Of a stretch of 64,000 nucleotides of DNA, positions 24,754 through 40,784 are shown piece after piece. This DNA is from Bacillota bacterium (lineage in GTDB: Bacteria; Bacillota; Desulfotomaculia; Desulfotomaculales; VENG01). Each line of letters begins with the position of its first letter. The first letter of the stretch is position 1. The translations under genes were made by a program, and so were the position numbers. The stretch is taken from contig VENG01000008.1 in NCBI GenBank assembly GCA_009711705.1, positions 99,535-163,534 of the forward strand, written 5' to 3'. The notes under the pieces were generated by a model. It searched no databases, was not told where the DNA came from, and saw only the letters and a program-made list of their open reading frames with translations.

Positions 24754-24995
24754 TTCCGAAGAAAAGAAAGTAGGCAAAGAGTCATCTTGACAACGCTTTC
24801 CAGTCATTTTTCGACAGGAATGTGTCGTTAAGATGACTTTTTTTTGTCACCTGCCAGACAAAAAAGATAGATTAAATTTGATAATCTTATTCATAAGTTA
24901 AAGTTAATCTTGAGGTCGAAATACAGTCGCGGTAGTTATTATGGTCTGTATGGTTGCAGTATCAAGTGCTGCCTTATAAAAAGAGGAGGGGAATC

Positions 24996-25802
24996 ATGCT
25001 ACTAAATGTGAAGGAACTGGCACTAAAGGATAGCTTGAGCTATCAAGAAATGCAGGACGCTCTGGAATACTTGTTTAGGTTGGATTATCATCCCGTCGCC
25101 ATTAAGTTTTTCTTTGACCAGGCTGAGTACGACAGTTACCAGGCGGAAAAGGTGCCGGGTCCAAAAATGACTTATTGTCAAATTGCATTAGCATCACGTT
25201 TTAATAGTTTTACCGTTAAAGCTTCTGTAGATAACTTGTTATGTGGTAATGCCAAGACTGTATTTGGTTTTCGGGAAGCTGACGATGCAGAGGTTGACGG
25301 GCATGTTAAGTATACAGCTGATTGGGATGCGGCTAAAAAATGCCTACTTAGTAAGCCAAAACTGCCACTGGGAGAATTGAAAGGTTTTGCCACTGCGCCG
25401 CTGGGAAAAGCTGATTTTGAACCCAGTGTGGTATTTTTTGTAGTTAACCCTCTGCAGGCCTATCATATCGCCAATGATTACATCGGGGCTTTCGGAGAGC
25501 ACCCCCTTACCTATAAACATACAGTTAATTCCGCGGTTTGCGCCGGCAGCGTTGTTTCTTACCTGGATAATGCCATAAATATGACTACCATGTGCGCAGG
25601 TAGTTTTACTTCCGGGAAAACAGAAAAAGGTGAGGTTAATCTGTTTATTCCAGGCAGCAAAATAGGTGGGGTAGCTGCACAGCTGATTCACCGCACCAAT
25701 AAATACGGCGGCCCTTCCATGTTGGGGACACCAGGACAGGAATTCCCGGGCATGGATGCTTGTAAAAAATGTCCCATGATCAAGTTTAAGGATGCCAAAT
25801 AA
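24996..25802 (+). CDS. DUF169 (COG2043) family protein
   Basis: HPVAIKFF...MTYCQ motif region. ATG 24996 follows AGAGGAGGGG. Confidence 0.55.
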   Translation: MLLNVKELALKDSLSYQEMQDALEYLFRLDYHPVAIKFFFDQAEYDSYQAEKVPGPKMTYCQIALASRFNSFTVKASVDNLLCGNAKTVFGFREADDAEVDGHVKYTADWDAAKKCLLSKPKLPLGELKGFATAPLGKADFEPSVVFFVVNPLQAYHIANDYIGAFGEHPLTYKHTVNSAVCAGSVVSYLDNAINMTTMCAGSFTSGKTEKGEVNLFIPGSKIGGVAAQLIHRTNKYGGPSMLGTPGQEFPGMDACKKCPMIKFKDAK

Positions 25803-25953
25803 CAACGGGGTTACGCCCCAGAGTTTATAGATAAAACAGTGATTATATGATTTTTCAGGGGGGTGATAAGGTAGGTCGGCTTTTATTGTTGGAGAGAGTT
25901 GGGTTTGTTCAGGAGTGTAGGTAAATACTGAAAGGGAAAAGGAGGACTTATCC

Positions 25954-26949
25954 ATGGATTTTGCCATTTCTGGAATTCATGCTAACCCCATTTGGATTAT
26001 TGTTTGGGGCATTTTAACCGGATATGTTTTTTCTACCGTTGGTGCTGCGGGTGCTGTTTTGACCCTTATTGGACAGGTTTCACTGTTTAAGATTGATAAA
26101 ATCATGCCCAAACACTTGATGGCACAGGGTATGGGTGAGGCGGCAGCTACTGCACAAGCCAAAAATACAATCAAGGTACACAACTTGATGGCTGTTATAT
26201 TGTCACCGATCATCGCGGTACCCAAGTACTTTAAGGAAAAGCGGGTGGCCATCCCACTGGCCTTATGTGTTGCAGCCGGTGTTGTATTCGGTGCCCTTAT
26301 TGGACCACAAATCCCCATGTCCTTAAAGGCGTACAAGTTTGGTTTTGGGGTTATTACTTTCATAATTGGTTTACGTCTTGCATATGAGACTACAGGTATC
26401 TACCGCTCGAAGAAACAGAAGCTAAATGAAGTTTCCAAGGCCTTTGAATCCAAGGTAAAAGAAATGAAACAAAGTGGTAACTGGGATGCCCTGGCTACGG
26501 AAGGTTTTAAGGTTAACAACTTCAGCATTAAAGGATTAAACTTTACTTTCTGGGGACAGGAATTTTCCATTAACCCCATCATAGCAGCAGTTGGCGGTTT
26601 CTTCATTGCTATTATTGCATCCATGTTTGGTCTGGGCGGCGGCTTCATGTTGGTTCCATACTTGTCTTCCATCTTCGTACTGCCCATGTTCATGGTTTCC
26701 GGTACTTCCATTCTCATCGTGCTTGTGAACTCAGTGGTTGCTATTGGGAGTTACGTGGCCAAGGGTGCTACTCCTGACTTCCTGTACATTGGATTTTTCC
26801 TGGTCGGTGTTGCCGGTGGATCGTATCTTGGACCGGTTTTCTCCAAGTTTTACAAGGAAAAGTACTTGCGGTGGCTTTTGGCATCAATACTTCTGTTCTA
26901 CGGTCTGAGGTTTATGGGTGTTTGGCAAGCCCTTGGATTAGGCATCTAA
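25954..26949 (+). CDS. TauE/SafE (DUF81) family anion exporter
   Basis: Two 4-TM halves with a long charged central loop; VGAAGAVLTL and GLGGGFMLVP motifs. Confidence 0.7.
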   Translation: MDFAISGIHANPIWIIVWGILTGYVFSTVGAAGAVLTLIGQVSLFKIDKIMPKHLMAQGMGEAAATAQAKNTIKVHNLMAVILSPIIAVPKYFKEKRVAIPLALCVAAGVVFGALIGPQIPMSLKAYKFGFGVITFIIGLRLAYETTGIYRSKKQKLNEVSKAFESKVKEMKQSGNWDALATEGFKVNNFSIKGLNFTFWGQEFSINPIIAAVGGFFIAIIASMFGLGGGFMLVPYLSSIFVLPMFMVSGTSILIVLVNSVVAIGSYVAKGATPDFLYIGFFLVGVAGGSYLGPVFSKFYKEKYLRWLLASILLFYGLRFMGVWQALGLGI

Positions 26950-27052
26950 AGTTGCTATAATACTTTTAAATACTTTATTTCTTAATTAACGGGTGGGTTC
27001 GGTAGTGGCCGAACCCACCCCACAACTATTTAAAGAGAGTGGTGGTTTAGTT

Positions 27053-27496
27053 ATGGAACCGGCTTTTGTGGTATTATTGACCGCGTGTGGGGTAACAACG
27101 TTGTCCGCCATTCTTTCTAAGCGTTTAGGAAAAGAAAAGGAAATGGATAAATGGTCGGGGGAAATGAAGCGGTGTAGTGACCTTTCCACCGATGCTGAAG
27201 AGGCCGGCAGAAAAGATATTTACAGTGCCTTTCAAAAAAAAGGCAATGAAGCTATGCATAAATATTTTGCCGCGCTATACCTGGAGGCAGTTGTTGAGCT
27301 TTCTCCCCACGTGTTGGTCTTAGGGGTGTTGCAGCGCTATTATACTCAGGATGTACTGCATTTTGGTTTTAGTTTTTGGCCATTCGGTTCAGGCATAGGA
27401 TTCTTTGGTGTGTATTTAGTTAGCGCGCTGGTTTTCCATTTTGCCGTGTTGAAAAAATTGAAAAAGAAACTTCCCATATTTGGGACTGCAAAGTAA
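27053..27496 (+). CDS. small 3-TM membrane protein (DUF106/EMC3-like architecture)
   Basis: ATG 27053, downstream of hairpin 26991..27020. TM1, charged helix, TM2, then FGFSFWPFGSGIGFFGVYLVSALVF and a basic tail. Confidence 0.45.
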   Translation: MEPAFVVLLTACGVTTLSAILSKRLGKEKEMDKWSGEMKRCSDLSTDAEEAGRKDIYSAFQKKGNEAMHKYFAALYLEAVVELSPHVLVLGVLQRYYTQDVLHFGFSFWPFGSGIGFFGVYLVSALVFHFAVLKKLKKKLPIFGTAK

Positions 27497-27509
27497 ACGA
27501 TATACCCAT

Positions 27510-28751
27510 TTAAATAAACGAAAACAAAACTACAGATATTGCAGCGCCGGCGAGAACCAGCCAGAGAGTATCAAGTTTTGTATAGCGTTGGGCGGCAACA
27601 GCCCCCAGGGCCATTAGCCATGTAGGTATATCCACCAGGATGTCGTTAGTTAATCTAATAACCACGGCCCACAAAGTTCCGATAAATGCAGCTACCACTC
27701 CGCGTACCACCAAGCGGATACTGGGTACCTGCCCGGCCCGGCGGTATAAATCGGCGGTAAGGTTGATAATGCAAAAAGTGGGAATGTAAATATTTATTGT
27801 GGCCACCAGTGCCCCTGTTAAACCTGCTGCTTTGTAACCGATAAAAGTGGCAATTTTGGTTAATGGGCCCGGGGTTACTAAACTCAAGGCCAGAGCTGTA
27901 GTGAATTGCTGCGTGGTGATCCATTGATAATGATTGACGGCTTCTTCCTGGATAAAGGGCAACATGGCGTATCCGCTGCCAAAAACCAGGCCGCCTAATT
28001 CCATGAACGTAGTGCCCAAGTTCGTAAAGACTTTTGTGGTGCTGATTAAGGCAATATCTGCAGTCACCAGGGCGGCAACCAGGCCCACAGTATAACCCAG
28101 CTTTTTCCTGTCAATTGGTTTAATTTGGGTTTTTTCAATGTTCTGCTCTTTGGTGAGCCCGGCCATTTTTTCTGCCCACCAGGGAGAGCGCCGGCCTAAT
28201 ATGACAAAGGTGATGCTGAACAAGGTAGCCAGCAGGAGAATCCAGTAGATACTTAAATTCAGCCAGTAAATTAATACAAAACCTCCAATGGCCAGAACCC
28301 AATTCTGCTTATTGGTCACCCCTGATTTCCACAGGTTAAGAACAGTGTTGATAACCAGCCCCACCACCAGTGCCCCCAACCCTTTAAACAAGTTGGATAC
28401 TATAGACAGGTCACGGTATTCAGTATAAAGATAAGTAAAAACAACCATAAATACAAATGCCGGTAGCAGATAAGCTATAGCGGCGCAGGCTGAACCCCAG
28501 AAGCCGCGCAGTCGTTGTCCCAGGTATATCATTAGACTTACCGCCGGTGCACCTGGTAGAATTTGTGAGAAACCAACCCCCTGCAGGTATTCTTCATCAG
28601 TAAACCACTTCTTCTCTTTTACCAGCCAATTTTTTGCTTCCCCCAGAGCGGCTAGACTAAAGGATACAGCCCCAATTCGTAAAAAGGTAAGGCAAATTTC
28701 CGGCAACGAGGCGGTTTTTATATTGTCCCGGGGAGTTGTTTTTTCTGACAT
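27510..28751 (-). CDS. chrA: chromate transporter ChrA (two fused CHR halves)
   Basis: FLRIGAVSFS...ILPGAPAVS in half 1 and GGLVFGSGYAMLPFI in half 2. ATG 28751 follows AAGGAGAGG. Confidence 0.8.
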   Translation of the reverse strand: MSEKTTPRDNIKTASLPEICLTFLRIGAVSFSLAALGEAKNWLVKEKKWFTDEEYLQGVGFSQILPGAPAVSLMIYLGQRLRGFWGSACAAIAYLLPAFVFMVVFTYLYTEYRDLSIVSNLFKGLGALVVGLVINTVLNLWKSGVTNKQNWVLAIGGFVLIYWLNLSIYWILLLATLFSITFVILGRRSPWWAEKMAGLTKEQNIEKTQIKPIDRKKLGYTVGLVAALVTADIALISTTKVFTNLGTTFMELGGLVFGSGYAMLPFIQEEAVNHYQWITTQQFTTALALSLVTPGPLTKIATFIGYKAAGLTGALVATINIYIPTFCIINLTADLYRRAGQVPSIRLVVRGVVAAFIGTLWAVVIRLTNDILVDIPTWLMALGAVAAQRYTKLDTLWLVLAGAAISVVLFSFI

Positions 28752-28863
28752 AGTGTCCTCTCCTTGGTAATGAGCTTTCTTGACAGGGTAGCAGGCCATA
28801 ATAATCTGCCAGGCGCGGGTAGATTAATTTGATCTGGGTCCAAAGGTATTTTTATCGAGGTAT

Positions 28864-28882
28864 TAAGTGCACAGTGCACTTA
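28864..28882. promoter_or_regulatory. 8-3-8 palindromic operator TAAGTGCA-CAG-TGCACTTA upstream of chrA
   Basis: Perfect inverted repeat ~113 nt 5' of the chrA start. Same arms occur at 38996..39014. Confidence 0.6.
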
Positions 28883-28944
28883 TGTAATTTTAAGATATAG
28901 TATCATTACAATCTAATTAAAGCAATACTTTTTCCTAAATCAAA

Positions 28945-28972
28945 ACAGGGAATCCTATATAGGATTCCCTGT
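28945..28972. terminator. perfect 28-bp palindrome, terminator of the small minus-strand ORF
   Basis: ACAGGGAATCCTAT|ATAGGATTCCCTGT, followed by TTTTG on the minus strand. Confidence 0.6.
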
Positions 28973-29006
28973 TAACGAATCAAGATAGAACATAATTCAA
29001 AGTGTC

Positions 29007-29150
29007 TCAATCAGGGCTGGGCTCAACTTCATCATATGATAATTGGGTTACCCTGGTGAACTCTCCCGTCTTTTTTTCCTTACGGGTTGCTTTCTCCTCC
29101 AAATAATCATCATCCCCGGGTGCGGCAACTGGCTTTCTTCTTTCTTCCAT
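29007..29150 (-). CDS. small acidic hypothetical protein (47 aa)
   Basis: Below the track cut-off. ATG 29150 follows AAAGGGG: MEERRKPVAAPGDDDYLEEKATRKEKKTGEFTRVTQLSYDEVEPSPD. A terminator follows. Confidence 0.3.
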   Translation of the reverse strand: MEERRKPVAAPGDDDYLEEKATRKEKKTGEFTRVTQLSYDEVEPSPD

Positions 29151-29255
29151 TGTGATTAACCCCTTTTGTGATTGTTAAAACTAAATTATTTCCTATAGCA
29201 GGTTATATTATAAGGCCAGTCGAAGTGTTAATTAAAGTCAGTATTGGTAAGGTAA

Positions 29256-30122
29256 TTAAGCAAGGCCTTTGGCGCTGGCAATGGCCAGCACCTGCCTGGC
29301 ACGGTTAACAATGGGGTATTCCACCATTTTACCGTCTACCTGAATTACACCGGTGCCCTTGGTTTCTGCTTCTTCAAAGGCTGCCACAATTTTGCGGGCG
29401 TTTTTGATTTCTTCTTCCGAGGGGCTGAATATTGTATTGACCGGCCCGATCTGATTGGGGTGAATCACCATTTTACCCTGGAAGCCCAAACGTTGCGCTC
29501 TTTTGGCATCTTCCTGCAATGAGTCGGTATCCTTAATAAATGGGCAAACTGTATCTAAGGGAGCTTCGATACCGGCGGCCCGTGATGCAACTACCAGCCG
29601 GGAACGAGCATAAAAAAATTCGTCTCCGGTGGTGGAGTAAGGAGTTCCGATGTCTGTAGTGAAGTCATTGCCACCTAAGGCGAGCCTTTTTACTCTGGGG
29701 CAGGCGCACGCTATGTCATAGGCTTTTTCTACGCCCAGTGAAGTTTCCAGGAAAGGTACCAGCTCAAGTTTCTGTTTTTCCGGTACCTGTTCACCTTCCA
29801 AGAGCGAAAGCAGCCAGTCAACGTGCCTTACCTCTTCGGCGGATTCAGTTTTAGCAAGGAAAATTCCGGTAATGGGTTTGCCGGCAGCAGCCTGTAAATC
29901 GGCCAATATAAAAGGTGTTTTAGCATCGTTGACACGGACAAAGGTAGGTTTTGCCGGGGGGGAGCCCAAGAATTCTTCAACCTGTTCCCTGGCCGAGGCT
30001 TTTTGGCTGTAAGCCACGGCGTCCTCAAGATCGAGAATTATTGCATCCGCCTCCAGGCCATAGGCTTTGTTCATTTTTTTGCTGTCACTGCCCGGGGCAA
30101 AAAGCATAGAACGATAAAGCAC
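29256..30122 (-). CDS. CitE/HpcH-family CoA-ester lyase (citrate lyase beta-like)
   Basis: RSMLFAPG...DAIILDLEDAV...IHPNQI motifs. Confidence 0.8.
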   Translation of the reverse strand: MLYRSMLFAPGSDSKKMNKAYGLEADAIILDLEDAVAYSQKASAREQVEEFLGSPPAKPTFVRVNDAKTPFILADLQAAAGKPITGIFLAKTESAEEVRHVDWLLSLLEGEQVPEKQKLELVPFLETSLGVEKAYDIACACPRVKRLALGGNDFTTDIGTPYSTTGDEFFYARSRLVVASRAAGIEAPLDTVCPFIKDTDSLQEDAKRAQRLGFQGKMVIHPNQIGPVNTIFSPSEEEIKNARKIVAAFEEAETKGTGVIQVDGKMVEYPIVNRARQVLAIASAKGLA

Positions 30123-30241
30123 GGTGATGAACCTCCTTTAGTTCGAACATTATTTGTGACTATAATCATTTTTTCGACAGTAGTTAAATTTTTCCCTTCA
30201 AGTGAGCAATCCCATCAATTGAATCTAACGGAAGGAGTGGA

Positions 30242-30736
30242 ATGTTGACTCAAATATATGCACCGGATTTTGTAGGTAAGTCGGACCAAGCTGTTGTGTT
30301 TCTGGTTTCTTCTTTAAATCAGGAATTGGAAAGTGTTATGGAACGTGTTCACCGTGGAGAACAGGTTGTTTACCGTTTTGAGTGGAACCTTGCCAAAGAC
30401 AGTGAACAAAAGGATATGATTGTATTTGCTTTGGAGTTTGCCGACGAGGAAAATGTGTCTATTGGGCTGGCACCCCAATATTGGGAATGTTTACCCTCGG
30501 TTATTTCTCTCGGCTACATCGTTATTATGACCGACCCCGGCCTGATCAATGAGGAAAACCGGGCTACGGTGGGTGAAGAGCCCAGGGCATTAGTCATCCA
30601 CAGTGCTTTTAATGGCCTCGATGGATTAGCCGACCAGGCTAACCATCGAATACAGGCCGGAGAAAGAGGGAACTTAGACTTTTTGCTCAGGCTGCTTTCC
30701 GAGGGGACTGAGCCGGATGAAAAACCGCACCACTGA
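30242..30736 (+). CDS. hypothetical protein
   Basis: 164-aa ORF, SD GGAAGGAGTGG. Terminator AAAACCGCACCACTG-AATTT-CAGTGGTGCGGTTTT at 30721..30755. Confidence 0.45.
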   Translation: MLTQIYAPDFVGKSDQAVVFLVSSLNQELESVMERVHRGEQVVYRFEWNLAKDSEQKDMIVFALEFADEENVSIGLAPQYWECLPSVISLGYIVIMTDPGLINEENRATVGEEPRALVIHSAFNGLDGLADQANHRIQAGERGNLDFLLRLLSEGTEPDEKPHH

Positions 30737-30882
30737 ATTTCAGTGGTGCGGTTTTGTATTTGAGGTATTAATTTTCCCCAGTGTGATAGATTATTAGTTG
30801 TGTTTGGATACTTTTTTCAGCATTTTATCCCGGTAACTGTGGGTACAGGTAAGAGTCTGAGTGTTTACTGGAGACGAAATAT

Positions 30883-31590
30883 ATGTTAGCAATTGTGCTG
30901 AGAACCATTCTAATCTACTTTATCATGCTGGCGGTAGTCCGGCTGATGGGAAAAAGGGAGATAGGCCAGTTATCACCCTTTGATTTTGTGGTGGCCATTA
31001 TGATGGCTGAGTTGGCTGTATTACCCATGGAGTCACCTGACATTCCATTATGGCATGGCATAATACCTTTAGTGATATTAGTCTGCTTAGAAATAGGCAT
31101 TTCCTATATGGCCTTACACAGTCATACAGTGCGGGGCTTTTTAGACGGAAAGCCTCAAATTATCATTGAAAACGGCAGAATTCTCAAAAAGGAAATGCGA
31201 AAGAGCCGTTATAACCTTAATGATCTGATGGCCCAGTTAAGGGAAAAGGGGGTTCCCAATATAGAGGATGTGGAGTTTGGGATTTTGGAAACGTCGGGAA
31301 GGCTCAGCATTATTCCCAGATCTCAAAAACGTCCCATAACGCCTGCGGATTTGGGTATCCAGACCAAATACGAAGGTATGCCTTTGGCACTGGTTATGGA
31401 CGGGGTGGTTATGCACACTAATCTTGATATGTGCGGTCTGAATGAGAAATGGCTGTTTGAAAAGCTAAACGAAACCGGTATGGCCCTGGCCGATATTTTT
31501 CTGGCCATGCTGGATACCCAGGGGGAGCTTTATGTTGTTCCTAAAGATAATTTTAAAGATAATTTCCATGTACAGAAAAAGAAGGAATAA
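30883..31590 (+). CDS. DUF421 (YetF-like) membrane protein
   Basis: VRLMGKREIGQLSPFDFVVAIMMAE motif and a C-terminal soluble domain. Confidence 0.75.
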   Translation: MLAIVLRTILIYFIMLAVVRLMGKREIGQLSPFDFVVAIMMAELAVLPMESPDIPLWHGIIPLVILVCLEIGISYMALHSHTVRGFLDGKPQIIIENGRILKKEMRKSRYNLNDLMAQLREKGVPNIEDVEFGILETSGRLSIIPRSQKRPITPADLGIQTKYEGMPLALVMDGVVMHTNLDMCGLNEKWLFEKLNETGMALADIFLAMLDTQGELYVVPKDNFKDNFHVQKKKE

Positions 31591-31638
31591 ATGCCCTAAC
31601 AGTCGAATGAAAGTTTTTTAAGGCAAGGGGGTGGTTTT

Positions 31639-32334
31639 ATATACCAGCTGGAAAGAAAGCATTTAACAATACTTTTAATAGTAGCTGCCTTGGTGCTTTT
31701 GGGCGGCGGGTACAAGTTAGTATCACTATCGCAGGCGGAAAACAATAAAGGACAAGATGTATTAATAGATGCAAATTCCACAGGGCAGGAAATGAATTCC
31801 TTGAAATCGACGGAAAATTCCGGTAATGAAGAACAAACAGAAGAAGCAAAAGAAATATATGTCCATGTGGTAGGAGCAGTTGAAAGACCCGGTGTTTACA
31901 GGCTTCCTGAGGGGTCAAGGGTAGTGGATGCCATTAATAAGGCTGTTGCTGCCCCGGAAGCCCGACTGGATCTTATCAATTTAGCGGCACCGTTGCCTGA
32001 TGGCGTACAGGTTACGGTTTTATCAGAAGAAGAGTATCAAGAATCATTGTCCACTGCTGCAGGCAGTGTGGATGTGACGGCGCCCGTTCAAGGCTTTACC
32101 GGTACATCTTTTAAGCAGAGCAGCGGCGGCAATTCCGGTCAGGGACTGGTAAACATAAATACCGCCGGCCAGGGCGAACTGGAGACGCTTTCCGGCATTG
32201 GGCCGGCCTTGGCCGGGAGAATCATCGATTACAGAGAGAATACAAGATTTTTGTCCCCGGAGGATATTCGAAACGTTTCGGGGATCGGGGAAAAACGGTT
32301 TGAACAGATTAAGGATAAGATTACAGTTAACTGA
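31639..32334 (+). CDS. comEA: competence protein ComEA (membrane-anchored DNA receptor)
   Basis: SLBB-like IYVHVVGAVERPGVYRLPEGSRVVDAI and HhH VNINTAGQGELETLSGIGPALAGRIIDYRE. The TM anchor is encoded only if translation starts at ATA 31639 (SD AAGGGGGTGG). The track TTG 31690 lies inside the helix. Confidence 0.75.
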   Translation: MYQLERKHLTILLIVAALVLLGGGYKLVSLSQAENNKGQDVLIDANSTGQEMNSLKSTENSGNEEQTEEAKEIYVHVVGAVERPGVYRLPEGSRVVDAINKAVAAPEARLDLINLAAPLPDGVQVTVLSEEEYQESLSTAAGSVDVTAPVQGFTGTSFKQSSGGNSGQGLVNINTAGQGELETLSGIGPALAGRIIDYRENTRFLSPEDIRNVSGIGEKRFEQIKDKITVN

Positions 32335-32812
32335 TTTAAAAGTAAAGCATTACTTTGGGGTCATAATTATTTTTACGAAAATGCCCGGGATATATGGGAT
32401 TTTTGCATGCGTTCTTACTGTTTTTTGATATAAAAACATCTTAGGTATTCCTTTGGGGTCGTTTTCTGACAGGATTAACAGGATTTGCAGGATTTTTTTT
32501 TGAGCAGGATCATTACTTTGAGAGCGTAGATACTTCATGGTTTTAAAAGAGCACCATTAATTTAAAACAATGACTTATATTTATGAGATAGAATCGAAAT
32601 GAAAGTATTTATTAATAATTCCATTGCAGATAAACTTCATTGCTTATCCTGTTAATCCTGTAAATCCTGTCAAAATGTTTTTCTTTGTCTTTATTTTTTG
32701 ATTTTATCCCTATCCTTAATCCTATACCATGTCTTAATCCCTTTCCTTTTTCTTTTCTTTACGGAAATAGTTTGAAGGAAATAACTGTTTCCCGGTCGAA
32801 AATTTTCTTATT
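32335..32812. repeat. second locus of the triple-9-nt repeat family, between comEA and comEC
   Basis: Reverse triple 32466..32494 and forward triple 32644..32675 match in 24 of 29 positions as inverted repeats. Tail fragments at 32355..32420; degenerate copies at 32700..32745. Confidence 0.8.
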
Positions 32813-35233
32813 ATGAAACGTATAGCAATCATTGCAATAAAACAAATAATTAACGGAAGCAACGCTGTGAGCCGACCTCTTTTAGTGCTGGTACTGGCAT
32901 TCACTGTTGGTATTTTGGTGTCCGGTCTTTTAGAGCCCGGGCTCTTTTTGATTTTCGGATTATGCTTACTAGTTTTTTTGGTGGCCGTTTATAGTTTCTT
33001 TGTTGGTCGCAGAGGCACCGGGCTGTTAGTAGCCTTGCTGGCGCTTTTGTTAGGTTTATTGACAGGCGGTTTAGCCTGGCAGGGAATAGATCAAAGTATA
33101 CTTAAATATTGTGATCACTACGTAATTATAGGAGGGACAGTGAGACAGGCTCCCGAATACCGTCTTGACTCCATAGAGTACGTCATGGATGTTGAAACAG
33201 TGCGGGTAAACGGTAAGATGTATGCAAATTCCGGGGGCGTACTGGTAAGGGTAAAGGGAAAGCAAGGAAAGTTTGGTTACGGTGACAGGCTTCAGGTCGA
33301 GGGTGTTTTATACAGGCCTTCCACGCCAGGAAACCCAGGTTCGTTCAATTATCGCAAATACCTTGCCCGGCAAAATATTGTGGCTTTAACCACAGTAGAG
33401 CCTGACCATGTGCAAAGGCTGGCTAAGGGGGCACCGGGATTGCTCGGTGCTGCCGCAGTAATGCGGGAAAAAATGATGCAAATTGCCAGGGATACTCTTT
33501 CACCCACCCACGCGGCCATGTTGAACGGAATGATGTTTGGCTCCAGGGGAGAAATCCCACGTGATTTGCAGCAAGCATTTTCCCAATCCGGGCTGGCCCA
33601 TGTACTTTGCGTCAGTGGACTACATGTAGGCTTGGTGCTGGGAGGGCTTTTAATAGTATTGAGGATGATAGGTACTCCCGTTTCCTGGCTGCCCGCCGTG
33701 ATCACACCGATACTATTGTTTTATGGGGCTATGACAGGGTTTGGCCCGGCGGTATTACGTGCCACCGTAATGGCACTGATGCTTTTATGGGGGCACCGCC
33801 TGGGGAGAGAAAGAGACTGGCCCACCACGCTGGCGCTGGCTGCCTTAATCATCCTGGCTTTAAATCCTCTGCAGCTTTATGAAGTAGGTTTTCAGCTTTC
33901 CTTTGCCGCCACATGGGGCATTTTATATCTGGGGCCCTGGCTGCAATCAAAAATGGAACAGTGGCGGCTGCCCAGTTGGATAAAATCTATTCTCCAGGTT
34001 ACGGTCTCTGCCCAGCTGGGTACCCTACCCATAGTAATACAATACTTTAATCTGGTGTCCGCCGCTTCCATAATAAGCAACCTGGTGGCATTGCCACTGA
34101 CGGGTATTATCCTTTTAATGGGGTTTGCGGCAGGGGTAACGGGTCTTATCATACCCTTGGCTGCGCAGGTTATTAATGCGGGAACAGACATTTTATTAAG
34201 CATCTATGAATGGCTGGTTTTGACCATTAGAAATATCCCGGTAGCTTCACATTACACTGCCCCCTTGCCCTGGTGGGGAATCGCTGCCTGGTATGCGGGG
34301 CTGGTCACCGTGGTGGAATGGTGCCGGGTGCGGCCATTAATACCCATTTCGGGCTCTCGTAAGTCCTGGGCGGCAATAAGTGTTACCTGCCTGGTGGCCC
34401 TGGCAATTTGGCACGGTAGTAAAGGAAATAATTTGGAAGTTCACTTTATCGATGTGGGGCAGGGAGACAGTATACTGGTACGCCTGCCCGGCGGAAAGGA
34501 CATGCTGGTGGATACCGGGGGCTGGTTCGGAGACTTTGACGGTGAACCGGGTGTGGGCGACTACGTGGTGGTTCCCTATTTGCGCAGGTTGGGTATAAAT
34601 AAGCTTGACGCCGTGGTTTTATCCCACTTTCATGAAGATCATGCCGGTGGATTAAGAGCGGTTATGAAGGCTATAAACGTAGCTGTGTTGATTGTCCCAC
34701 CGCTGGATACGGAATTAGATGCCAACACCGGTGTTCAAGAAATTTTTGCCGTGGCCAGCCAAAAAAATATCCCTGTCCGTTTTGGCAATTACGGTGACAA
34801 ACTGTTCCCGGACAGCCCGGTTAAAATCTCTTGTTTGGGCCCTTTACAAGAACCTCTTGACGGGACCAGATCTGACCTTAACAATAATTCCCTGGTATTG
34901 TTTGTGGATTACAAGAATACCGAATTCTTATTGTCCGGCGATATTGAAGAAGAAATGCAGGAGAAACTGGTAGAAATGGGAGTGCTACAGGCAGTGGAAG
35001 TACTAAAAGTGGCCCATCACGGAAGCAGGTATGCCTCACCTGCCTTTTTGGAACAAACTGTACCAAGGGTAGCGATAATTTCAGTGGGGGAGGGGAATAG
35101 GTTTAATTTACCCAGTCAGGAAATAATTTCCCTTTTAGAAACCATGCAGGTGACAATATACCGCACTGACCGGGACGGCGCGGTGATAGTAAGTTCCAAC
35201 GGTAAGGGACTTACTATCAAAACCGGCCGCTAA
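32813..35233 (+). CDS. comEC: DNA internalisation competence protein ComEC/Rec2
   Basis: 806 aa; polytopic competence domain plus C-terminal metallo-beta-lactamase (HFHEDHAGG). Confidence 0.9.
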   Translation: MKRIAIIAIKQIINGSNAVSRPLLVLVLAFTVGILVSGLLEPGLFLIFGLCLLVFLVAVYSFFVGRRGTGLLVALLALLLGLLTGGLAWQGIDQSILKYCDHYVIIGGTVRQAPEYRLDSIEYVMDVETVRVNGKMYANSGGVLVRVKGKQGKFGYGDRLQVEGVLYRPSTPGNPGSFNYRKYLARQNIVALTTVEPDHVQRLAKGAPGLLGAAAVMREKMMQIARDTLSPTHAAMLNGMMFGSRGEIPRDLQQAFSQSGLAHVLCVSGLHVGLVLGGLLIVLRMIGTPVSWLPAVITPILLFYGAMTGFGPAVLRATVMALMLLWGHRLGRERDWPTTLALAALIILALNPLQLYEVGFQLSFAATWGILYLGPWLQSKMEQWRLPSWIKSILQVTVSAQLGTLPIVIQYFNLVSAASIISNLVALPLTGIILLMGFAAGVTGLIIPLAAQVINAGTDILLSIYEWLVLTIRNIPVASHYTAPLPWWGIAAWYAGLVTVVEWCRVRPLIPISGSRKSWAAISVTCLVALAIWHGSKGNNLEVHFIDVGQGDSILVRLPGGKDMLVDTGGWFGDFDGEPGVGDYVVVPYLRRLGINKLDAVVLSHFHEDHAGGLRAVMKAINVAVLIVPPLDTELDANTGVQEIFAVASQKNIPVRFGNYGDKLFPDSPVKISCLGPLQEPLDGTRSDLNNNSLVLFVDYKNTEFLLSGDIEEEMQEKLVEMGVLQAVEVLKVAHHGSRYASPAFLEQTVPRVAIISVGEGNRFNLPSQEIISLLETMQVTIYRTDRDGAVIVSSNGKGLTIKTGR

Positions 35234-35290
35234 AGGTCTAAGGAGTGGGAAAAAACACTTATTGCTTTTCATAAGCGGTGTTGCTCTCTC

Positions 35291-36448
35291 TTACACAGCT
35301 ATTATTTTGCGCTTAAGCAGTTCTTGCAGCGCGATGCCGGCTAAGAAACCTGCTCCCATATTCCACATCCCAAATCCAGCCGTAACGAGAAGGATATAAA
35401 AGTCTTCTTTCTCTCTACCCACATCTCTGGCACTTACCGCTAGCTCAAGACCGGCAAATAAAAGAATTACACCCAGTATGCACTCGGGAAAGATTTTAAA
35501 GATAAGGGCTACTGAGTTGCTAAAGAAAAGAGCCAATACAAGTAGTATGCAACCAAGTATTACAAGGGATCCGCCGGTTCTAGCCCCGAACCTGACGTGA
35601 CCGGCCATACCGCCCGCCCCGTGACACATGGGGGTGCCGCCGAAAATAGGTGATACCAGGTTCATTATGCCCTGCGAAACGGCAATTTTCTTTTCGGTTA
35701 CCGGCCTGTCCGGAAAGAGCCTATTATTTTCAGCAGTGATAGCAATGACGGCGTTCCCCAGTGTGAGTGGTATTTGAGGTATACCGAGTATTAGTGTCCC
35801 TTTGACAAAGTCCTGCCATGTTACACTGGCCACGGCCAGTTCAGGCATTCTAAAACCTATTTTAATTTGTGCCAGCTGACCAAATAGAGTAGGATCACGG
35901 AAAATGGCTACTGCTACGCCCACAACGAGAAGAACAAACATAGCCGGAACCTTTTTACCCTTGAGCAAGAAAAATGTAAGCAGCAAGGCAAATATGGCAA
36001 TTGCCAAATCACTCTGCATCTTTTGTATACCATCTTTAACGAACAAAAGCCCCAGGCCAAGTACAATACCTCTTATCACCGGCTTGGTTGCTATTTTGGA
36101 AATGTGATTTAGCATTCCCGTTAACCCCATAATAAGCCAGAAAAAACCGGTGAAAATTCCTGCCCCTAACACCATACTTGGTGTCAATGCCCCGGCACTG
36201 GTAATGGCTGCACCGCCTATAGCCTTCATGGGCTGGATGGGCAGTGGAGTCTTATAATACGAGCCCCCGATAATCATTAAGATACCAAACATAAACAATA
36301 CCCCGAGCGGGTCCATCTTCATTACCGTTATGTAGCCAACTATAAAAGGTATAAGGGTGCCCAGGTCACCAAAGGCACCGGCCCACTCCATGCGGTCAAA
36401 TTTGTTTTTAAGCTTTGTTGGTGCGGTTGGTTCCGTTTGAGTTTTCAT
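35291..36448 (-). CDS. MOT1/SulP-related putative molybdate/sulfate-type oxyanion permease
   Basis: WAGAFGDLGTLIPFIVGY and PIQPMKAIGGAAI resemble plant/algal MOT1 motifs (GDLGTxIP, PxQPMK). Confidence 0.6.
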   Translation of the reverse strand: MKTQTEPTAPTKLKNKFDRMEWAGAFGDLGTLIPFIVGYITVMKMDPLGVLFMFGILMIIGGSYYKTPLPIQPMKAIGGAAITSAGALTPSMVLGAGIFTGFFWLIMGLTGMLNHISKIATKPVIRGIVLGLGLLFVKDGIQKMQSDLAIAIFALLLTFFLLKGKKVPAMFVLLVVGVAVAIFRDPTLFGQLAQIKIGFRMPELAVASVTWQDFVKGTLILGIPQIPLTLGNAVIAITAENNRLFPDRPVTEKKIAVSQGIMNLVSPIFGGTPMCHGAGGMAGHVRFGARTGGSLVILGCILLVLALFFSNSVALIFKIFPECILGVILLFAGLELAVSARDVGREKEDFYILLVTAGFGMWNMGAGFLAGIALQELLKRKIIAV

Positions 36449-36452
36449 TCTG

Positions 36453-37238
36453 TCACCTCAACTTATATGTTGCTGAAATAAACTTTTTCTGTAACTCCAG
36501 ACCATAGGGGATTACTTTTTCCGGTTTTATTTTAAACCTTTTGCCATCGTCCAGATCGATAAAAAAGTTTATTAGCTTGTTAATTACAGTATCACTAGTG
36601 CCAAGGGTTAAAAGCTTTTTCGTAAATTTGTCATCAACAGGCTTAGTCTTAAAGATTCTGCAGCAATGGGGGTTCTCATAATATTGTCTTATCCTGTCCA
36701 GATTTTTCTCAAGGGCATCAATAAGTTCGTCCAAAACAGAACCGGTGGTTTCAACAACAACCGATGCCTGAACTAAAAAGCAATAAATAAACCTTTTTAT
36801 TTCAAATCCGCTTACTTTCAGAGGGCTGTTGTGCCGGTATAATTTTATTTCCGCTAAAGATTGTTTTTTGTCACCTGAAATAATTGTATGATCAGTTAGC
36901 CTGATACCAAGTAATGCCAGTTGCCACTTTAAAAATTCGGTGGAAACAACATCATTATCTGACGGGATAATTTCTCCGTGCCATGGAACTTGGGGGTGGT
37001 TATGCACGACTATGGCCTCTTGAAAGCATATTTTTGTTTGGCTTAGCCACTGAATTAAAACATTTACAGGTGGCATAATAGCCCATGTTTCCTGGCAGTT
37101 ATCACCACATAAAACTTTTAATTTGTTACTTCCACTGCCGAATACCAGTACTGCCTGTTCATATTTTTTTGTGGAAATGGCTTTTATTTCTTCGATACTA
37201 AGAATATCCACTGCTATGTAGGAAGTAGGTAGGGACAT
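36453..37238 (-). CDS. RadC-like JAB/MPN domain protein with ~125-aa unknown C-terminal region
   Basis: VVHNHPQVPWHGEIIPSDNDVVST...GIRLTDHTIIS fits HxH...SxxD with a 4-residue insertion relative to canonical RadC. ATG 37238 follows AGGAGGGG. Confidence 0.6.
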   Translation of the reverse strand: MSLPTSYIAVDILSIEEIKAISTKKYEQAVLVFGSGSNKLKVLCGDNCQETWAIMPPVNVLIQWLSQTKICFQEAIVVHNHPQVPWHGEIIPSDNDVVSTEFLKWQLALLGIRLTDHTIISGDKKQSLAEIKLYRHNSPLKVSGFEIKRFIYCFLVQASVVVETTGSVLDELIDALEKNLDRIRQYYENPHCCRIFKTKPVDDKFTKKLLTLGTSDTVINKLINFFIDLDDGKRFKIKPEKVIPYGLELQKKFISATYKLR

Positions 37239-37254
37239 TAAAGAACCCCTCCTG

Positions 37255-37686
37255 TCAATTTGACATATGCAGCTCATCTTCCAGGGCTTGAATAAAACTT
37301 TTTAATGAATAAGATCTAATGTTAAATAATATTAAGCCCAGGGCTACCATAATACACACAAAGTAGAACTGTGGAATCTGAATTCCCAGTACGGTGGGGA
37401 TCCCGTCAATAGTACGGAGGGCTTCATTTTTTTCTTTTGTCCAGGCTATCACTTTAGGTTCCGCATCCACGTCATTTGTCCGCGCCGGAATCATTTCAAC
37501 TGCTAAGTCGCCAAGTGCGGGATTGTAAAGAACGTCTAAAAAAATAACATTAAAAATAACCTGGTAGGCTAATATCCCACTGATTATAAAGACCAGTAAG
37601 AGGTGCCAGGAGACCTTCTTTTCGTAGTCATTGATTTTTCTTGTTAATTCTTTCTCGTTTAGCTTTGAGTTAGCCATTTTAACCAC
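37255..37686 (-). CDS. 2-TM hypothetical membrane protein
   Basis: 143 aa; TM helices WHLLLVFIISGILAYQVIFNVIF and FYFVCIMVALGLILFNI; tightly packed in the operon. Confidence 0.5.
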   Translation of the reverse strand: MVKMANSKLNEKELTRKINDYEKKVSWHLLLVFIISGILAYQVIFNVIFLDVLYNPALGDLAVEMIPARTNDVDAEPKVIAWTKEKNEALRTIDGIPTVLGIQIPQFYFVCIMVALGLILFNIRSYSLKSFIQALEDELHMSN

Positions 37687-37690
37687 GCCC

Positions 37691-38512
37691 CTAGCAAGGA
37701 ATTAAACCATTCTGCTCCAGTATTTCCTCTCCACGGGAACCGGTCAATATATCAATAAACTCCTGGGCTAGTTCCTTTTGATTCGATTCTTTTGGAATGG
37801 CGATGGCAAACTCAATGGGAGTACCGGTGATTTCGGTATCCAGGCCGGGATAACTTCCGTCAACTACAACTTTGGCCCGGGCATAATAATCAGCCAGGCG
37901 CGGGTCGCTTAAATTAATCTCAGGGGGGAATACTATGTGCTTTAGGTTTAATTGTTTGGCCACTGAAAGATATTCAAAGCCGTAATCAACCTGGCCCTGT
38001 AGAAGGGCACAAGCCAAATCAAAGGATTTGGGGTAGACATTACTCCAATTATCTTCCAATGCTTTAAACAGGCCCGGCCGGTTATAAAATTTCTCTGCCA
38101 GCTGCCACAACATCAATGTTCTGTACCCGCAGGGATCACGGTGATGGTCTGAACGACCGTATTTAATCTGGCTATTATTTAATAAAACATCCATCCAGTT
38201 GTCCTCGTTAATAATTTCACTATGCGTGGAAAACTCATCAAAGGCCAAAACCATTTGGTCGGTGGCAAAAGCAAAGGAGGTATCTACAAAGCGGGGAATT
38301 AGAATATCTTCAAATACCTTATAATCCGCCAGCGCAATTAAATCCACTATCTTTCCCCCCGCCACCGCCCGGGCACAGGCCCTTGACCCTGCATAATCCA
38401 ATTCTACTTTTAAATCAGGGTATCTTTCCCATAATATGTGAATGCACTCTTTCATGGGTTTACGCAGCGCCCCGGCATGAAGTACTTTAAAACAATTAGG
38501 ATTATTTTTCAT
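37691..38512 (-). CDS. WtpA/ModA-like tungstate/molybdate-binding protein lacking a signal peptide
   Basis: FKVLHAGALRKPM, HRDPCGYRTLMLWQLAE and VDYGFEYLSVAKQ match remembered WtpA class motifs (HAGSL, DPCGYR). Only 8 residues precede the first beta-strand. The start overlaps the padR stop. Confidence 0.6.
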   Translation of the reverse strand: MKNNPNCFKVLHAGALRKPMKECIHILWERYPDLKVELDYAGSRACARAVAGGKIVDLIALADYKVFEDILIPRFVDTSFAFATDQMVLAFDEFSTHSEIINEDNWMDVLLNNSQIKYGRSDHHRDPCGYRTLMLWQLAEKFYNRPGLFKALEDNWSNVYPKSFDLACALLQGQVDYGFEYLSVAKQLNLKHIVFPPEINLSDPRLADYYARAKVVVDGSYPGLDTEITGTPIEFAIAIPKESNQKELAQEFIDILTGSRGEEILEQNGLIPC

Positions 38513-38876
38513 CAGCGCTTCCCCCTTGCTCTTTTTGTTCTCGGTATAGACTAAGAAATTGTTCGACTTGAAGTTTTTGCTTCTCTACCTTTGCAGCAGC
38601 TTCGTCCAAAACGTTGATACCTTTTTCAGTTATTTCGTATAACCTGCGGGCAGGGCCCGATTCCGAGGTCTGCCAGCTGGATGTTAAAAGCCCGTTCTTC
38701 TCCATCCGTCTCAAGTTCCTGTATATGGTGCCCGGTTCTACTTCTTCCGTAGATTGCAATTTATTATAGTTTTGAATTAATTCATAGCCGTGCGAGGGCT
38801 TCATATAAACAAATAAAAGTAAGCCCGGCTGAATCAATTTATCCAGGGAAATATCCTCTCCGTTTTTTACCGCCAT
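38502..38876 (-). CDS. PadR family transcriptional regulator
   Basis: KPSHGYELIQ...GTIYRNLRRMEKNGLLTSSW...RRLYEITEKG. ATG 38876 follows ACGGAGG. Confidence 0.85.
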   Translation of the reverse strand: MAVKNGEDISLDKLIQPGLLLFVYMKPSHGYELIQNYNKLQSTEEVEPGTIYRNLRRMEKNGLLTSSWQTSESGPARRLYEITEKGINVLDEAAAKVEKQKLQVEQFLSLYREQKEQGGSADEK

Positions 38877-38995
38877 TATAAACCTCCGTATCAAGCGATT
38901 TCACAGAAATAATCAAGAGCACAGCCTTGTTCTAAAAATCTGTATCTTCATGGCATTACCTCCATTTAAATTGGCAAGCAAGTGCATTATAATTT

Positions 38996-39014
38996 TAAGT
39001 GCACCATGCACTTA
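38996..39014. promoter_or_regulatory. 8-3-8 palindromic operator TAAGTGCA-CCA-TGCACTTA between divergent padR genes
   Basis: Same arms as 28864..28882; an extra half-site AAGTGCA at 38979..38985. Confidence 0.6.
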
Positions 39015-39157
39015 GGTAATTGAAAATATATTAACACTATAATTTTATTTACACAATACATTTTTTCCAAATTTACCTTGCCATAAATATGAACTAATGT
39101 TAATATGATTGACAAATAACTCTATAGGCATATTGCACATAAGGGAGGTTTCCATAA

Positions 39158-39544
39158 ATGTGCCAAGACCAAGGTTCTCATCATGAAAGTAGTTGCAGCT
39201 GTTCTGGTATGCCAATGAGACGCTTTCTGCAGCCCTGTCTTTTACTGCTGCTTCACCGCCGGTCAACTCACGGGTACGATTTGATTCAAAATCTTGGAGA
39301 GTTCGGTTTTTCTTCCGGTGAAACAGACCCGGGCACTGTATACAGGCACCTGCGTAAGATGGAAGAGGAAAAATTAGTAACTTCCGCCTGGGATACAGAT
39401 CAAGGTGGGCCGGCTAAAAGGCTGTACCAAATAACCGGTGAGGGTGAGGAAATTTTACACGCCTGGGCCGTTACCCTGAATGGGAATAAACAGAGGATAG
39501 AAGACTTTTTGGTTAAATATAAAACCCAATTTCCGGGACAGTAG
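39158..39544 (+). CDS. PadR family regulator with Cys/His-rich N-terminal extension
   Basis: N-terminus MCQDQGSHHESSCSCSG, then the PadR core STHGYDLIQ...GTVYRHLRKMEEEKLVTSAW...KRLYQITGEG. Confidence 0.8.
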   Translation: MCQDQGSHHESSCSCSGMPMRRFLQPCLLLLLHRRSTHGYDLIQNLGEFGFSSGETDPGTVYRHLRKMEEEKLVTSAWDTDQGGPAKRLYQITGEGEEILHAWAVTLNGNKQRIEDFLVKYKTQFPGQ

Positions 39545-39772
39545 TATGCATTATAACTATAAAGAAGACTTGGTTCAGGTTGGGTTTTTACCCCATCTGA
39601 ACCTTAGTCGCACTTATTTCGAGCTTACAGCCTGTTAATCCTATTAGTTGGGGACATTCCTGTCCCCAGAGAAATACCCAAGCTTCAGCAGGTGTGTCCC
39701 CTTTCCTTATGCGAGGCCGGGGTCTTACAGGCTGTGCGAAGATAAAAACAGTTCTTAAGCGGGGGAACAAAA
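39545..39772 (+). other. 228-nt structured leader / repeat mosaic upstream of the split permease
   Basis: Hairpin 39572..39603. GGGGACA (39650..39656) can pair with TGTCCCC at 39661..39667 or 39695..39701. ACAGCCTGT 39627..39635 is complementary to ACAGGCTGT 39727..39735. Confidence 0.5.
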
Positions 39773-40249
39773 ATGTTTAATATCATCCTTTTTGTATCGG
39801 CTGCCATTGGATTTATAATATCCAATCAGAAAGACAAAGTAAAAACTAAGCAGGCCCTCAAAAAAGCCGTAAATTCCTTTATCAATTTATTGCCCAGCTT
39901 ACTGGGGATCATTGGCCTCATCGGTTTAATGTTGGCGCTGGTGCCCCGGGAATTAATTGCGGGGTTTTTCGGCGATAACAGCCCGGCAGGTATTGCCGTC
40001 ATTTCGGCCATCGGTTCCATTACACTGCTGCCGGCATTTGTTGCTTTTCCCCTGGCCTCATCGTTCCTTGATGCCGGGGCCAGTATCGTTGCCGTGGCCT
40101 GTTTTATCACCACTTTGCTGATGGTGGGGGTCATAACCGCTCCCATGGAAATAGAGTATTTCGGGAAGAAATTTACCCTTTGGCGTAATTTATCTGCACT
40201 GGTACTGGCAGTTATCATCGGTCCCTTGATTGGGGTGATGGTGCGGTGA
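39773..40249 (+). CDS. permease, half-size (DUF318/ArsP-superfamily-like), part A
   Basis: 158 aa, 4-5 TM; overlaps the next gene by 4 nt. Confidence 0.55.
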   Translation: MFNIILFVSAAIGFIISNQKDKVKTKQALKKAVNSFINLLPSLLGIIGLIGLMLALVPRELIAGFFGDNSPAGIAVISAIGSITLLPAFVAFPLASSFLDAGASIVAVACFITTLLMVGVITAPMEIEYFGKKFTLWRNLSALVLAVIIGPLIGVMVR

Positions 40250-40782
40250 AGAGTAAAATTAAAAAGTATAATCTTTTTTTCCTGGTTGTTTTAGTTGATC
40301 TTATTTTGTGGTTCTACTGGCCGGATAAGGGAACAACGGCAGTTATAAGTACCGGTGATTATCTAGTTGAGATGCTGCTGTTCATTCCACCTATTTTTAT
40401 ATTAATCGGTCTATTAGATGTTTGGGTACCCAGAGAAATTGTGGAAAAGAACGTAGGTTCCGAGTCAGGGGTAAAGGGTGTTGTTATATCCATTTTGGTG
40501 GCCACTGCTGCAGCCGGTCCCCTTTACGCGGGCTTCCCGGTAGCCTACACTCTGATGGAAAAAGGCTGCCGCATGGCAAATGTGGTGATCTTTCTCGGTA
40601 CCTGGGCAACAATAAAAGTTCCCATGCTGATGATGGAGATAAAATTTTTGGGAATGGAATTTGCGGCAGCCAGGTTGCTATTAACTCTTCCGGCAATTAT
40701 CCTTTCCGGTTACCTGGTAGAAAGATTGTTAGCCGGTGCAAAGAAAGCCGGTAAACCTAAAGCTAACAAACTTACCGGTTAA
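40246..40782 (+). CDS. permease, half-size (DUF318/ArsP-superfamily-like), part B
   Basis: 178 aa; LDVWVPRE...AAAGPLYAGFP...TWATIKVPMLMME. Confidence 0.55.
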   Translation: MKSKIKKYNLFFLVVLVDLILWFYWPDKGTTAVISTGDYLVEMLLFIPPIFILIGLLDVWVPREIVEKNVGSESGVKGVVISILVATAAAGPLYAGFPVAYTLMEKGCRMANVVIFLGTWATIKVPMLMMEIKFLGMEFAAARLLLTLPAIILSGYLVERLLAGAKKAGKPKANKLTG

Positions 40783-40784
40783 AA

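Follow-up and report, generated by a model that had tools for sequence, protein, structure and literature searches.

A palindrome shared by the chrA and padR1 promoters as the probable operator of a PadR-family repressor paired with a WtpA-like protein in Desulfotomaculales

Why does the same palindrome stand ahead of a gene for a CHR-family transporter and ahead of a separate operon headed by a PadR-family gene? The question is posed by a 64,000-nt stretch of a Desulfotomaculales genome (contig VENG01000008.1, positions 99,535-163,534; assembly GCA_009711705.1), here called the window, on which the coordinates below are based. A reading of this DNA made from the sequence alone had pointed to two matching palindromes, one upstream of the transporter gene chrA and one upstream of padR1, the first gene of an operon that also encodes a WtpA-like binding protein. 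It had predicted that a single regulator, most simply one of the adjacent PadR proteins (the products of padR1 and of the divergent padR2), controls both. The comparisons described here suggest an answer: the palindrome is probably the operator of PadR1, which would autoregulate its own operon and control chrA, with the WtpA-like protein sensing an oxyanion as its partner.

Two copies of a promoter-operator cassette

Direct reading confirmed both palindromes at 28864-28882 and 38996-39014, and the distances given for them to the starts of chrA (28751), padR1 (38876) and padR2 (39158) hold. The elements of the two regions are as follows, with scores in bits from a position weight matrix (PWM) built from 13 orthologous sites.

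28864..28882: candidate operator copy 1 in the chrA leader, TAAGTGCACAGTGCACTTA (= TAAGTGCAC-A-GTGCACTTA), 14 nt downstream of the predicted -10 box, 29.0 bits
38996..39014: candidate operator copy 2 in the padR1 leader, TAAGTGCACCATGCACTTA (= TAAGTGCA-CCA-TGCACTTA), 13 nt downstream of the predicted -10 box, 32.6 bits
38980..38986: extra half-site AAGTGCA, 9 nt promoter-distal of operator 2
28897..28925, minus strand: predicted chrA promoter, -35 TTGCTT (28920-28925), 17-nt spacer, -10 TACTAT (28897-28902), 14 nt to the palindrome
39028..39056, minus strand: predicted padR1 promoter, -35 TTGTGT (39051-39056), 17-nt spacer, -10 TAATAT (39028-39033), 13 nt to the palindrome
27510..28751, minus strand: chrA, CHR-family transporter, 413 aa, ATG at 28751, AGGAG ribosome-binding site
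28944..28973, minus strand: terminator-like hairpin of the small open reading frame (ORF) upstream, 13-bp stem followed by a T run

A search of the whole 64 kb with TAAGTGCANNNTGCACTTA, allowing up to 3 mismatches, returned these two sites only, both with 0 mismatches (shuffle expectation 0.26), and by an arithmetic estimate the chance of a second exact copy of a pattern with 16 specified bases in 64 kb is about 1.5e-5. True sites score 26.5-34 bits with the PWM, and the maximum over 20 shuffled windows was 15.6 bits. The statement that the window holds no other copy therefore stands for strong copies, the exception being one weak 17.1-bit hybrid at 39123-39141 that is discussed below. The 8-nt arms and the 3-nt spacing are indeed common to both sites, whose half-site centres lie 11 bp apart, but site 1 is better described as a perfect 9-1-9 palindrome and the likeness extends about 60 nt beyond the arms. 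The extra half-site also exists, one base off the position first given for it (38979-38985); it is partial (TGCACTA) in locus L011, from the closest relative, and missing from the other orthologues.

The longer similarity between the two regions runs rightward of the palindromes on the plus strand (pairwise alignment). Read in the other direction, toward chrA and padR1, it takes the form of a sigma-70-type promoter with predicted boxes. On the minus strand, the resulting cassette reads -35 TTGyxx, 17 nt, -10 TAnTAT, 13-14 nt, TA[A/G]GTGCA-N3-TGCAC[A/T]TA, so that the palindrome makes up the downstream end of each cassette, with one copy before chrA and one before padR1. The promoter layout is common to all orthologous cassettes, and the combined pattern (GTGCANNNTGCACYTA-N13-14-ATANTA) matched twice in the window and 0 times in 100 shuffles. 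From the predicted boxes, the palindrome would span about +7 to +25 counted from the likely transcription start, just downstream of the -10 and in the classical position of a repressor site, where a bound PadR1 dimer would block RNA polymerase. A plus-strand promoter using TATAAT at 38988-38993, or one aimed at padR2, was considered and set aside: unlike the minus-strand promoter, it is not kept in orthologues that lack padR2.

The chrA product belongs to the CHR family by both profiles applied (PF02417 in two stretches, E 7.5e-72; TIGR00937, 256.3 bits against a cut-off of 171.7). Upstream of it on the minus strand lie a CitE/HpcH-like gene, a 47-aa ORF (about 29005-29150) and the terminator hairpin listed above, which is conserved in L011; since this strong hairpin precedes chrA, the gene is taken as a separate transcription unit. 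Its cassette copy is retained in L011 as TAGGTGCACTGTGCACTTA. A different arrangement is found in L019, from the metagenome-assembled genome (MAG) JAIPEW, where the operon runs small gene, padR1, WtpA-like gene and chrA, the last being third from padR1 and encoding an orthologous protein (70% identity to the window ChrA). The gene thus occurs within the PadR1 operon in one case and behind a duplicate of the operon's promoter and operator in the other, a good indication of co-regulation.

Just beyond chrA, on the plus strand (24954-26949), the window encodes a DUF169-type protein and a TauE-like permease. The names were carried over from Pfam matches of the syntenic L015 genes; with NCBIfam the window proteins matched nothing. 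Identity between the TauE-like protein and the TauE of the D. gibsoniae operon is only about 24%, and no palindrome lies ahead of these two genes.

The palindrome follows padR1

Two PadR-family genes flank site 2 and come into question as the source of the regulator.

38502..38876, minus strand: padR1, PadR family (PF03551), 124 aa, the proposed binder of the palindrome
39158-39544, plus strand: padR2, divergent from padR1, 144 nt from site 2

Orthologues of PadR1 at 57% identity or more were collected from 13 loci in about 11 lineages, and all 13 (the window included) carry the palindrome at the same offset from the -10 box, whatever gene lies upstream. The upstream neighbours are wholly different between these loci; therefore the element travels with padR1. 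Besides the window, the site-bearing loci are:

L011: MAG Soudan_19, PadR1 94% identical, syntenic with the window, closest relative
L013 (L013/L014): PadR1 84% identical, without padR2
L015 (L015/L016): PadR1 75% identical, without padR2
L019: MAG JAIPEW, PadR1 66% identical
L006, L017, L018 and L063: D. geothermicus, D. gibsoniae, D. arcticus and D. alcoholivorax, respectively; the site of Desulfoscipio gibsoniae (CP003273) lies at 9688-9706 of L017
L068 and L076: MAGs
L115 and L141: metagenome contigs

At least eight padR1 loci without padR2 keep the site (among them L013, L015, L017-L019, L063 and L068). Conversely, none of the five loci with padR2 only (L003-L005, L009-L010) has the palindrome: L003-L005 carry an 85%-identical padR2 and the permease genes with no padR1 operon and no palindrome, and the site is equally missing at the locus of Desulfofundulus salinus (L009), which has padR2 without padR1. 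This co-occurrence indicates that the regulator is PadR1 and not the padR2 product. The prediction of a single regulator for chrA and the operon at 35291-38876 is thereby supported, together with the L011 chrA copy and the placement of chrA within the L019 operon; of the two adjacent PadR proteins between which it had left the choice, padR1 encodes the one that fits.

PadR1 falls in the PadR family (PF03551, 72.0 bits against a cut-off of 27, E 4e-20, residues 20-91), and its 124 aa, with about 30 residues C-terminal of the domain, would suit the subfamily-2 build (about 110 aa, one C-terminal dimerisation helix; PMC3506622). Its recognition helix reads EPGTIYRNLRRME, without change in 12 of the 13 orthologues that carry the site; in L019 it is EPGTIYRHLRKME. 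An alignment of 15 sites gave the consensus TA[A/G]GTGCA-N3-TGCAC[A/T]TA, with 13 of 16 arm positions invariant and a variable spacer and flanks. Written as a PadR-type motif this is A[A/G/T]GT-N9-AC[A/T]T, with the exact ACAT arm in 7 of the 15 sites; at the padR1 promoter of the window the cores are AAGT and ACTT, 9 nt apart, and each matches ATGT or ACAT in three of four bases.

At a larger scale, the cassette pattern was scanned across one genome per species (596 Gb) and across metagenomes. The genome scan gave 32 matches, 8 of them at padR1 or at the chrA of a padR1 genome and the remainder scattered singletons in unrelated phyla. The Soudan_19 assembly has exactly two matches, at padR1 and chrA, and there is a single one in each of D. 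geothermicus, D. arcticus and D. alcoholivorax. The metagenomes added three further padR1 sites and one orphaned cassette, their remaining matches being unrelated. No regulon target beyond the padR1 operon and chrA was found in either scan. In about 250 kb of related loci, the PWM hits of at least 12 bits besides the true sites were the hybrid near padR2 (17), one in L009 (12.8), one in L084 (14.2) and one in L059 (21.6), the last being a palindrome in a locus chosen by the pattern itself and with no link to padR1.

The orphaned cassette (L136, 9268-9303) lies beside padR2 with no padR1 operon downstream, which appears to have been deleted there. Three repeat families in the metagenomes (L092/L094/L104/L106/L114/L129/L131/L133/L134/L140, L088/L095/L112/L119/L120/L132 and L097/L110) match the cassette by chance; they comprise TGCA-rich, microsatellite-like DNA and a GGTTAGGTGCA-CTC-TGCACCTAACC palindrome, hold no bacterial-type ORFs, look eukaryote-like and are unrelated to the PadR system.

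Could padR1 be merely one target of an unlinked regulator of this clade, for example a global one or the nearby OmpR-type response regulator at 41412-42101? The assignment of the site to PadR1 is made by comparison, and a response-regulator/kinase pair does lie near padR1 in the window, L011 and L015. This pair is missing from most padR1 loci, however, and over the 596 Gb the site follows padR1, one per genome at the padR1 promoter, which is the signature of autoregulation. Moreover, OmpR-type regulators bind direct repeats and not palindromes, and the motif fits the PadR operator pattern. An unlinked regulator seems to us unlikely.

The palindrome might also act as RNA, as a 5'-proximal stem-loop that stabilises both messengers or modulates their translation with no repressor involved. 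With the promoters as predicted, it would lie close to the 5' end of each transcript; it folds into an 8-bp hairpin in both leaders, and a scanner marks site 1 as terminator-like on the plus strand, where there is no gene to terminate. Of the eight pairs of this hairpin, six are invariant across the 15 aligned sites, which by itself is neutral between DNA and RNA, yet compensatory changes number 0, and at the one freely varying pair (9-23) the two sides change independently and are left unpaired in 6 of the 15 sites. The leaders fold with ordinary stability (z -0.19 and -0.93), and Rfam, including the Moco riboswitch, gave no relevant match at E <= 1 in 27000-41500. Invariant arms, a free spacer and the lack of compensatory change point to a protein operator rather than an RNA hairpin, and make the latter quite improbable.

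Binding by PadR2, which would then control chrA, the padR1 operon and itself, is suggested by the position of its gene 144 nt from site 2, by its being a paralogue of PadR1 (both are PhaQ-like) and by a weak hybrid site with one identical arm at its own promoter:

39078-39106, plus strand: predicted padR2 promoter, TTGCCA-17-TAATAT
39123..39141: weak hybrid site, TATAGGCATATTGCACATA (= TATAGGCA-TAT-TGCACATA), just before the padR2 ribosome-binding site and 16 nt after the predicted padR2 -10

This site has the layout of the PadR1 operator, with one arm identical and the other different, and scores 17.1 bits in the window and 16.9 bits in L011, against the shuffle maximum of 15.6. The padR2-only loci keep a related element, TATAGGCA-N3-T.CA.ATA, for which reason the hybrid is probably PadR2's own operator, with cross-talk of PadR1 at it being possible. 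Given that a separate promoter is predicted for padR2, that this gene has a conserved element to itself, that the five padR2-only loci lack the palindrome and that at least eight padR1 loci keep it without padR2, a role for PadR2 at the palindrome is very improbable. The padR2 gene is followed on the plus strand by a split ArsP_1-type permease and a Cys/His-rich 42-aa ORF (40951-41079, MCNCNCDHP...), and PadR2 itself has a Cys-rich N-terminus (SSCSCSG). The gene, the permease and the Cys/His ORF are conserved together in L003 and L011 and look like a separate thiol- or metal-related module.

Finally, that the two copies are no more than the trace of a duplicated promoter segment is hardly credible. 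The roughly 60 nt of similarity beyond the palindrome is what a segmental duplication would give, but in distant orthologues the flanks have diverged and the arms stay invariant at a fixed offset from the -10.

The WtpA-like partner and a proposed mechanism

Downstream of padR1 the operon continues with four genes:

37691..38512, minus strand: WtpA homologue (SBP_bac_11), 273 aa, signal-less, overlapping the padR1 stop by 11 nt
37255-37686, minus strand: 143-aa membrane protein with no family match
36453-37277, minus strand: RadC-like JAB protein
35291-36448, minus strand: MOT1-like anion transporter

This order, from padR1 to the MOT1-like gene, is repeated in L011 and L013. The transporter slot is filled elsewhere by TauE (five lineages), MOT1-like proteins (three), ChrA (L019) or AzlCD (L015). 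The pair of RadC-like JAB and 143-aa membrane protein genes between the WtpA-like gene and the transporter is present also in L011, L013 and D. geothermicus. Between the operator and padR1, the window holds on the minus strand (38891-38951) the remnant of a small gene, a 12-codon ORF. In orthologous loci the full gene encodes 61-76 aa, HMA-like by eye (no Pfam match) and ending in ...DYFC(N/E)(V/I)A; in the window, L011 and L013 only the ribosome-binding site, the start and the last 40 nt or so are left.

The WtpA-like protein aligns over its full length with ModA/WtpA of A. fulgidus (PDB 3cij/2onk; E 5e-50), and stays below the NCBIfam equivalog cut-offs for true WtpA (NF003196, 229.8 against 355; TIGR03730, 207.9 against 242.75). 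Its maximal ORF of 273 aa begins MKNNPNCFKVLHAG and the alignment starts at profile position 30, which leaves no space for a signal peptide. All 13 orthologues begin alike and are signal-less, and in 13 of 13 loci the gene overlaps padR1 by 4 or 11 nt. A true WtpA from the same list of homologues (P0240), by comparison, begins with MKRWLAVLFVFALALTAC, a lipoprotein signal peptide. Among the best database homologues, about 120 have 270-275 aa and come from Desulfotomaculia and Peptococcia. No ABC permease or ATPase gene (wtpBC) was present in the padR1 operon at any locus examined. Two database proteins, P0233 (417 aa, with a 35-aa linker) and P0137 (397 aa), are fusions of a PadR and a WtpA-like protein, a Rosetta-stone argument that the two act together. 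For these reasons the WtpA-like protein is more likely a cytoplasmic oxyanion sensor than a component of uptake, and the molybdate/tungstate uptake operon envisaged in the sequence-only reading finds no support here.

The DPCGYR motif with its metal-binding Asp is conserved, and the position aligned to the Glu of SMEME in A. fulgidus is an Asp (KSFD) in the window protein and its paralogues; we take this position to be that of the second metal-binding carboxylate, a tentative mapping based partly on the A. fulgidus numbering. In WtpA of P. furiosus the metal-coordinating carboxylates are Asp160 and Glu218 (PMC10221389), and proteins of the ModA/WtpA type bind molybdate, tungstate and chromate (PMC11350598). 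Taken with the WtpA homology and the oxyanion-type transporters of the operon, this published binding makes a group-6 oxyanion signal plausible. In L015 (12480-14647) the padR1/WtpA-like pair is followed by azlCD, a ferredoxin gene and a tungsten-type aldehyde:ferredoxin oxidoreductase (AFOR_N/AFOR_C), before which the PWM scan found no separate operator of 12 bits or more; this gene neighbourhood hints further at tungstate or molybdate as the signal.

The mechanism that we propose is as follows. A PadR1 dimer would bind the palindrome and block RNA polymerase at the promoters of the operon and of chrA. Through one copy, padR1 would be autoregulated together with the WtpA-like, membrane protein, RadC-like and MOT1-like genes, and the other copy would put chrA under the same control. 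PadR1 would not be the sole sensor: its co-translated, signal-less WtpA homologue may bind a tetrahedral oxyanion in the cytoplasm (tungstate or molybdate being the likely candidates and chromate a possible one) and modulate PadR1. The direction that we prefer is that oxyanion binding releases PadR1, so that the anion transporters would be induced and would remove toxic sulfate-analogue oxyanions. Ligand-induced release is favoured because PadR repressors are typically released by their effector, because the chrI-chrA1 system is induced by chromate, because ChrA, TauE and AzlCD are families of the exporter type, and because group-6 oxyanions, as analogues of sulfate, are toxic to the sulfate-reducing hosts. 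The opposite direction, a ModE-like co-repression of importers, may apply instead.

Several observations weigh against this picture. The evidence is wholly comparative, and the -35 and -10 boxes and the transcription start are predictions. The window sites read AAGT...ACTT and not the canonical ATGT...ACAT. The PadR/WtpA-like pair of Desulforamulus ruminis (L143, 5900-7200; 50% identity, no gene overlap), whose recognition helix is almost unchanged, lacks the palindrome, both in the 91 nt upstream and throughout the 12 kb examined, which confines the association of protein and motif to one clade. The operator of the D. ruminis pair, if there is any, differs or lies elsewhere. Beyond the lineage of the window the padR1 operon is the only target found, so that the "regulon" amounts to two promoters. 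In the WtpA-like protein an Asp replaces the metal-coordinating Glu and the NCBIfam WtpA cut-offs are not reached, and MOT1-type transporters are usually importers, which fits co-repression and not induction.

We nonetheless consider it likely that the palindrome is PadR1's operator, with autoregulation, control of chrA and an oxyanion-sensing WtpA-like partner. A fuller version can be put forward only tentatively, and we would not yet bet on it: PadR1 and the signal-less WtpA homologue might constitute a hitherto undescribed two-protein, sometimes fused, cytoplasmic sensor-repressor of group-6 oxyanions in Gram-positive sulfate reducers, in which the oxyanion frees TA[A/G]GTGCA-N3-TGCAC[A/T]TA and thereby induces ChrA, TauE, MOT1-like or AzlCD transporters against molybdate, tungstate and chromate as poisons of sulfate activation. 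These three anions are classic inhibitors of sulfate reducers, which also need Mo or W for key enzymes. In the literature searched we found no oxyanion (Mo/W/Cr) regulator in the Gram-positive sulfate reducers (Desulfotomaculia). The locus offers a testable candidate, with a 19-bp operator, a named repressor, a likely sensor that has solved homologues, and a regulon made up of its own operon and chrA; the operator/repressor pair could also serve as a part for an oxyanion biosensor. Should the ligand not be an oxyanion, an ordinary PadR autoregulatory operator with one extra target would remain.

Relation to known systems

Autoregulation by PadR proteins through an inverted-repeat operator, the linkage of a PadR gene to chrA (ChrI) and oxyanion-responsive repressors (ModE, TunR) are already known. 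Literature searches that paired PadR with tungstate, WtpA or molybdate turned up nothing of relevance, and no description was found in the literature searched of this operator sequence, of an obligatory pairing or fusion of PadR with a cytoplasmic WtpA, or of interchangeable anion-transporter cargo.

The closest parallel in gene content is in B. cereus SJ1, where chromate induces the co-transcribed genes chrI, of the PadR family, and chrA1 (PMC2936356). Like PadR1, ChrI is a small PadR-family protein genetically coupled to a CHR-family chromate transporter, a likeness of family and gene linkage, and the chromate induction of chrI-chrA1 fits a ligand-released autorepressor. Unlike PadR1, ChrI has no WtpA-like partner and no defined operator. 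The control proposed here differs as well, with chrA regulated in trans through a duplicated cassette (in cis only in L019) by the product of an operon that carries other anion transporters.

With PadR, LmrR and bcPadR1/2, PadR1 shares the PF03551 winged helix and a small size of the order of subfamily 2, and it would share autoregulation and an inverted-repeat operator of the same geometry, the canonical form of which is ATGT-N8-10-ACAT (PMC3506622). In comparison, the arms here are longer (TA[A/G]GTGCA), the window cores are AAGT and ACTT, and effector sensing is proposed to take place in a separate binding protein and not in the PadR dimer.

As a cytoplasmic molybdate/tungstate regulator with a palindromic operator at the promoters of oxyanion transporters, the proposed system would resemble ModE of E. 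coli and TunR of Desulfovibrio, the latter reportedly an oxyanion regulator from work by Kazakov and colleagues in 2013. In these proteins Mop/TOBE domains do the sensing and ModE-type or XerD-like domains contact the DNA, whereas here a PadR winged helix would be combined with a putative sensor that has the periplasmic-binding-protein fold of the WtpA class. Pfam and NCBIfam give only PadR and SBP_bac_11/WtpA-like matches, with no Mop/TOBE, ModE-type or XerD-like domain, and the system is thus not a member of the ModE/TunR group.

With WtpA of the WtpABC transporter (PDB 2onk, 3cij, 3cg1), finally, the partner protein shares full-length homology and the metal-binding Asp of DPCGYR. It differs from WtpA in having no signal peptide or lipobox, no accompanying WtpBC genes, scores below the equivalog cut-offs and an Asp in place of Glu, and in being always coupled or fused to a PadR protein. 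If the proposal is true, the substrate-binding protein of an ABC importer would have found a second use in the cytoplasm, as the subunit through which a transcription factor senses its ligand.

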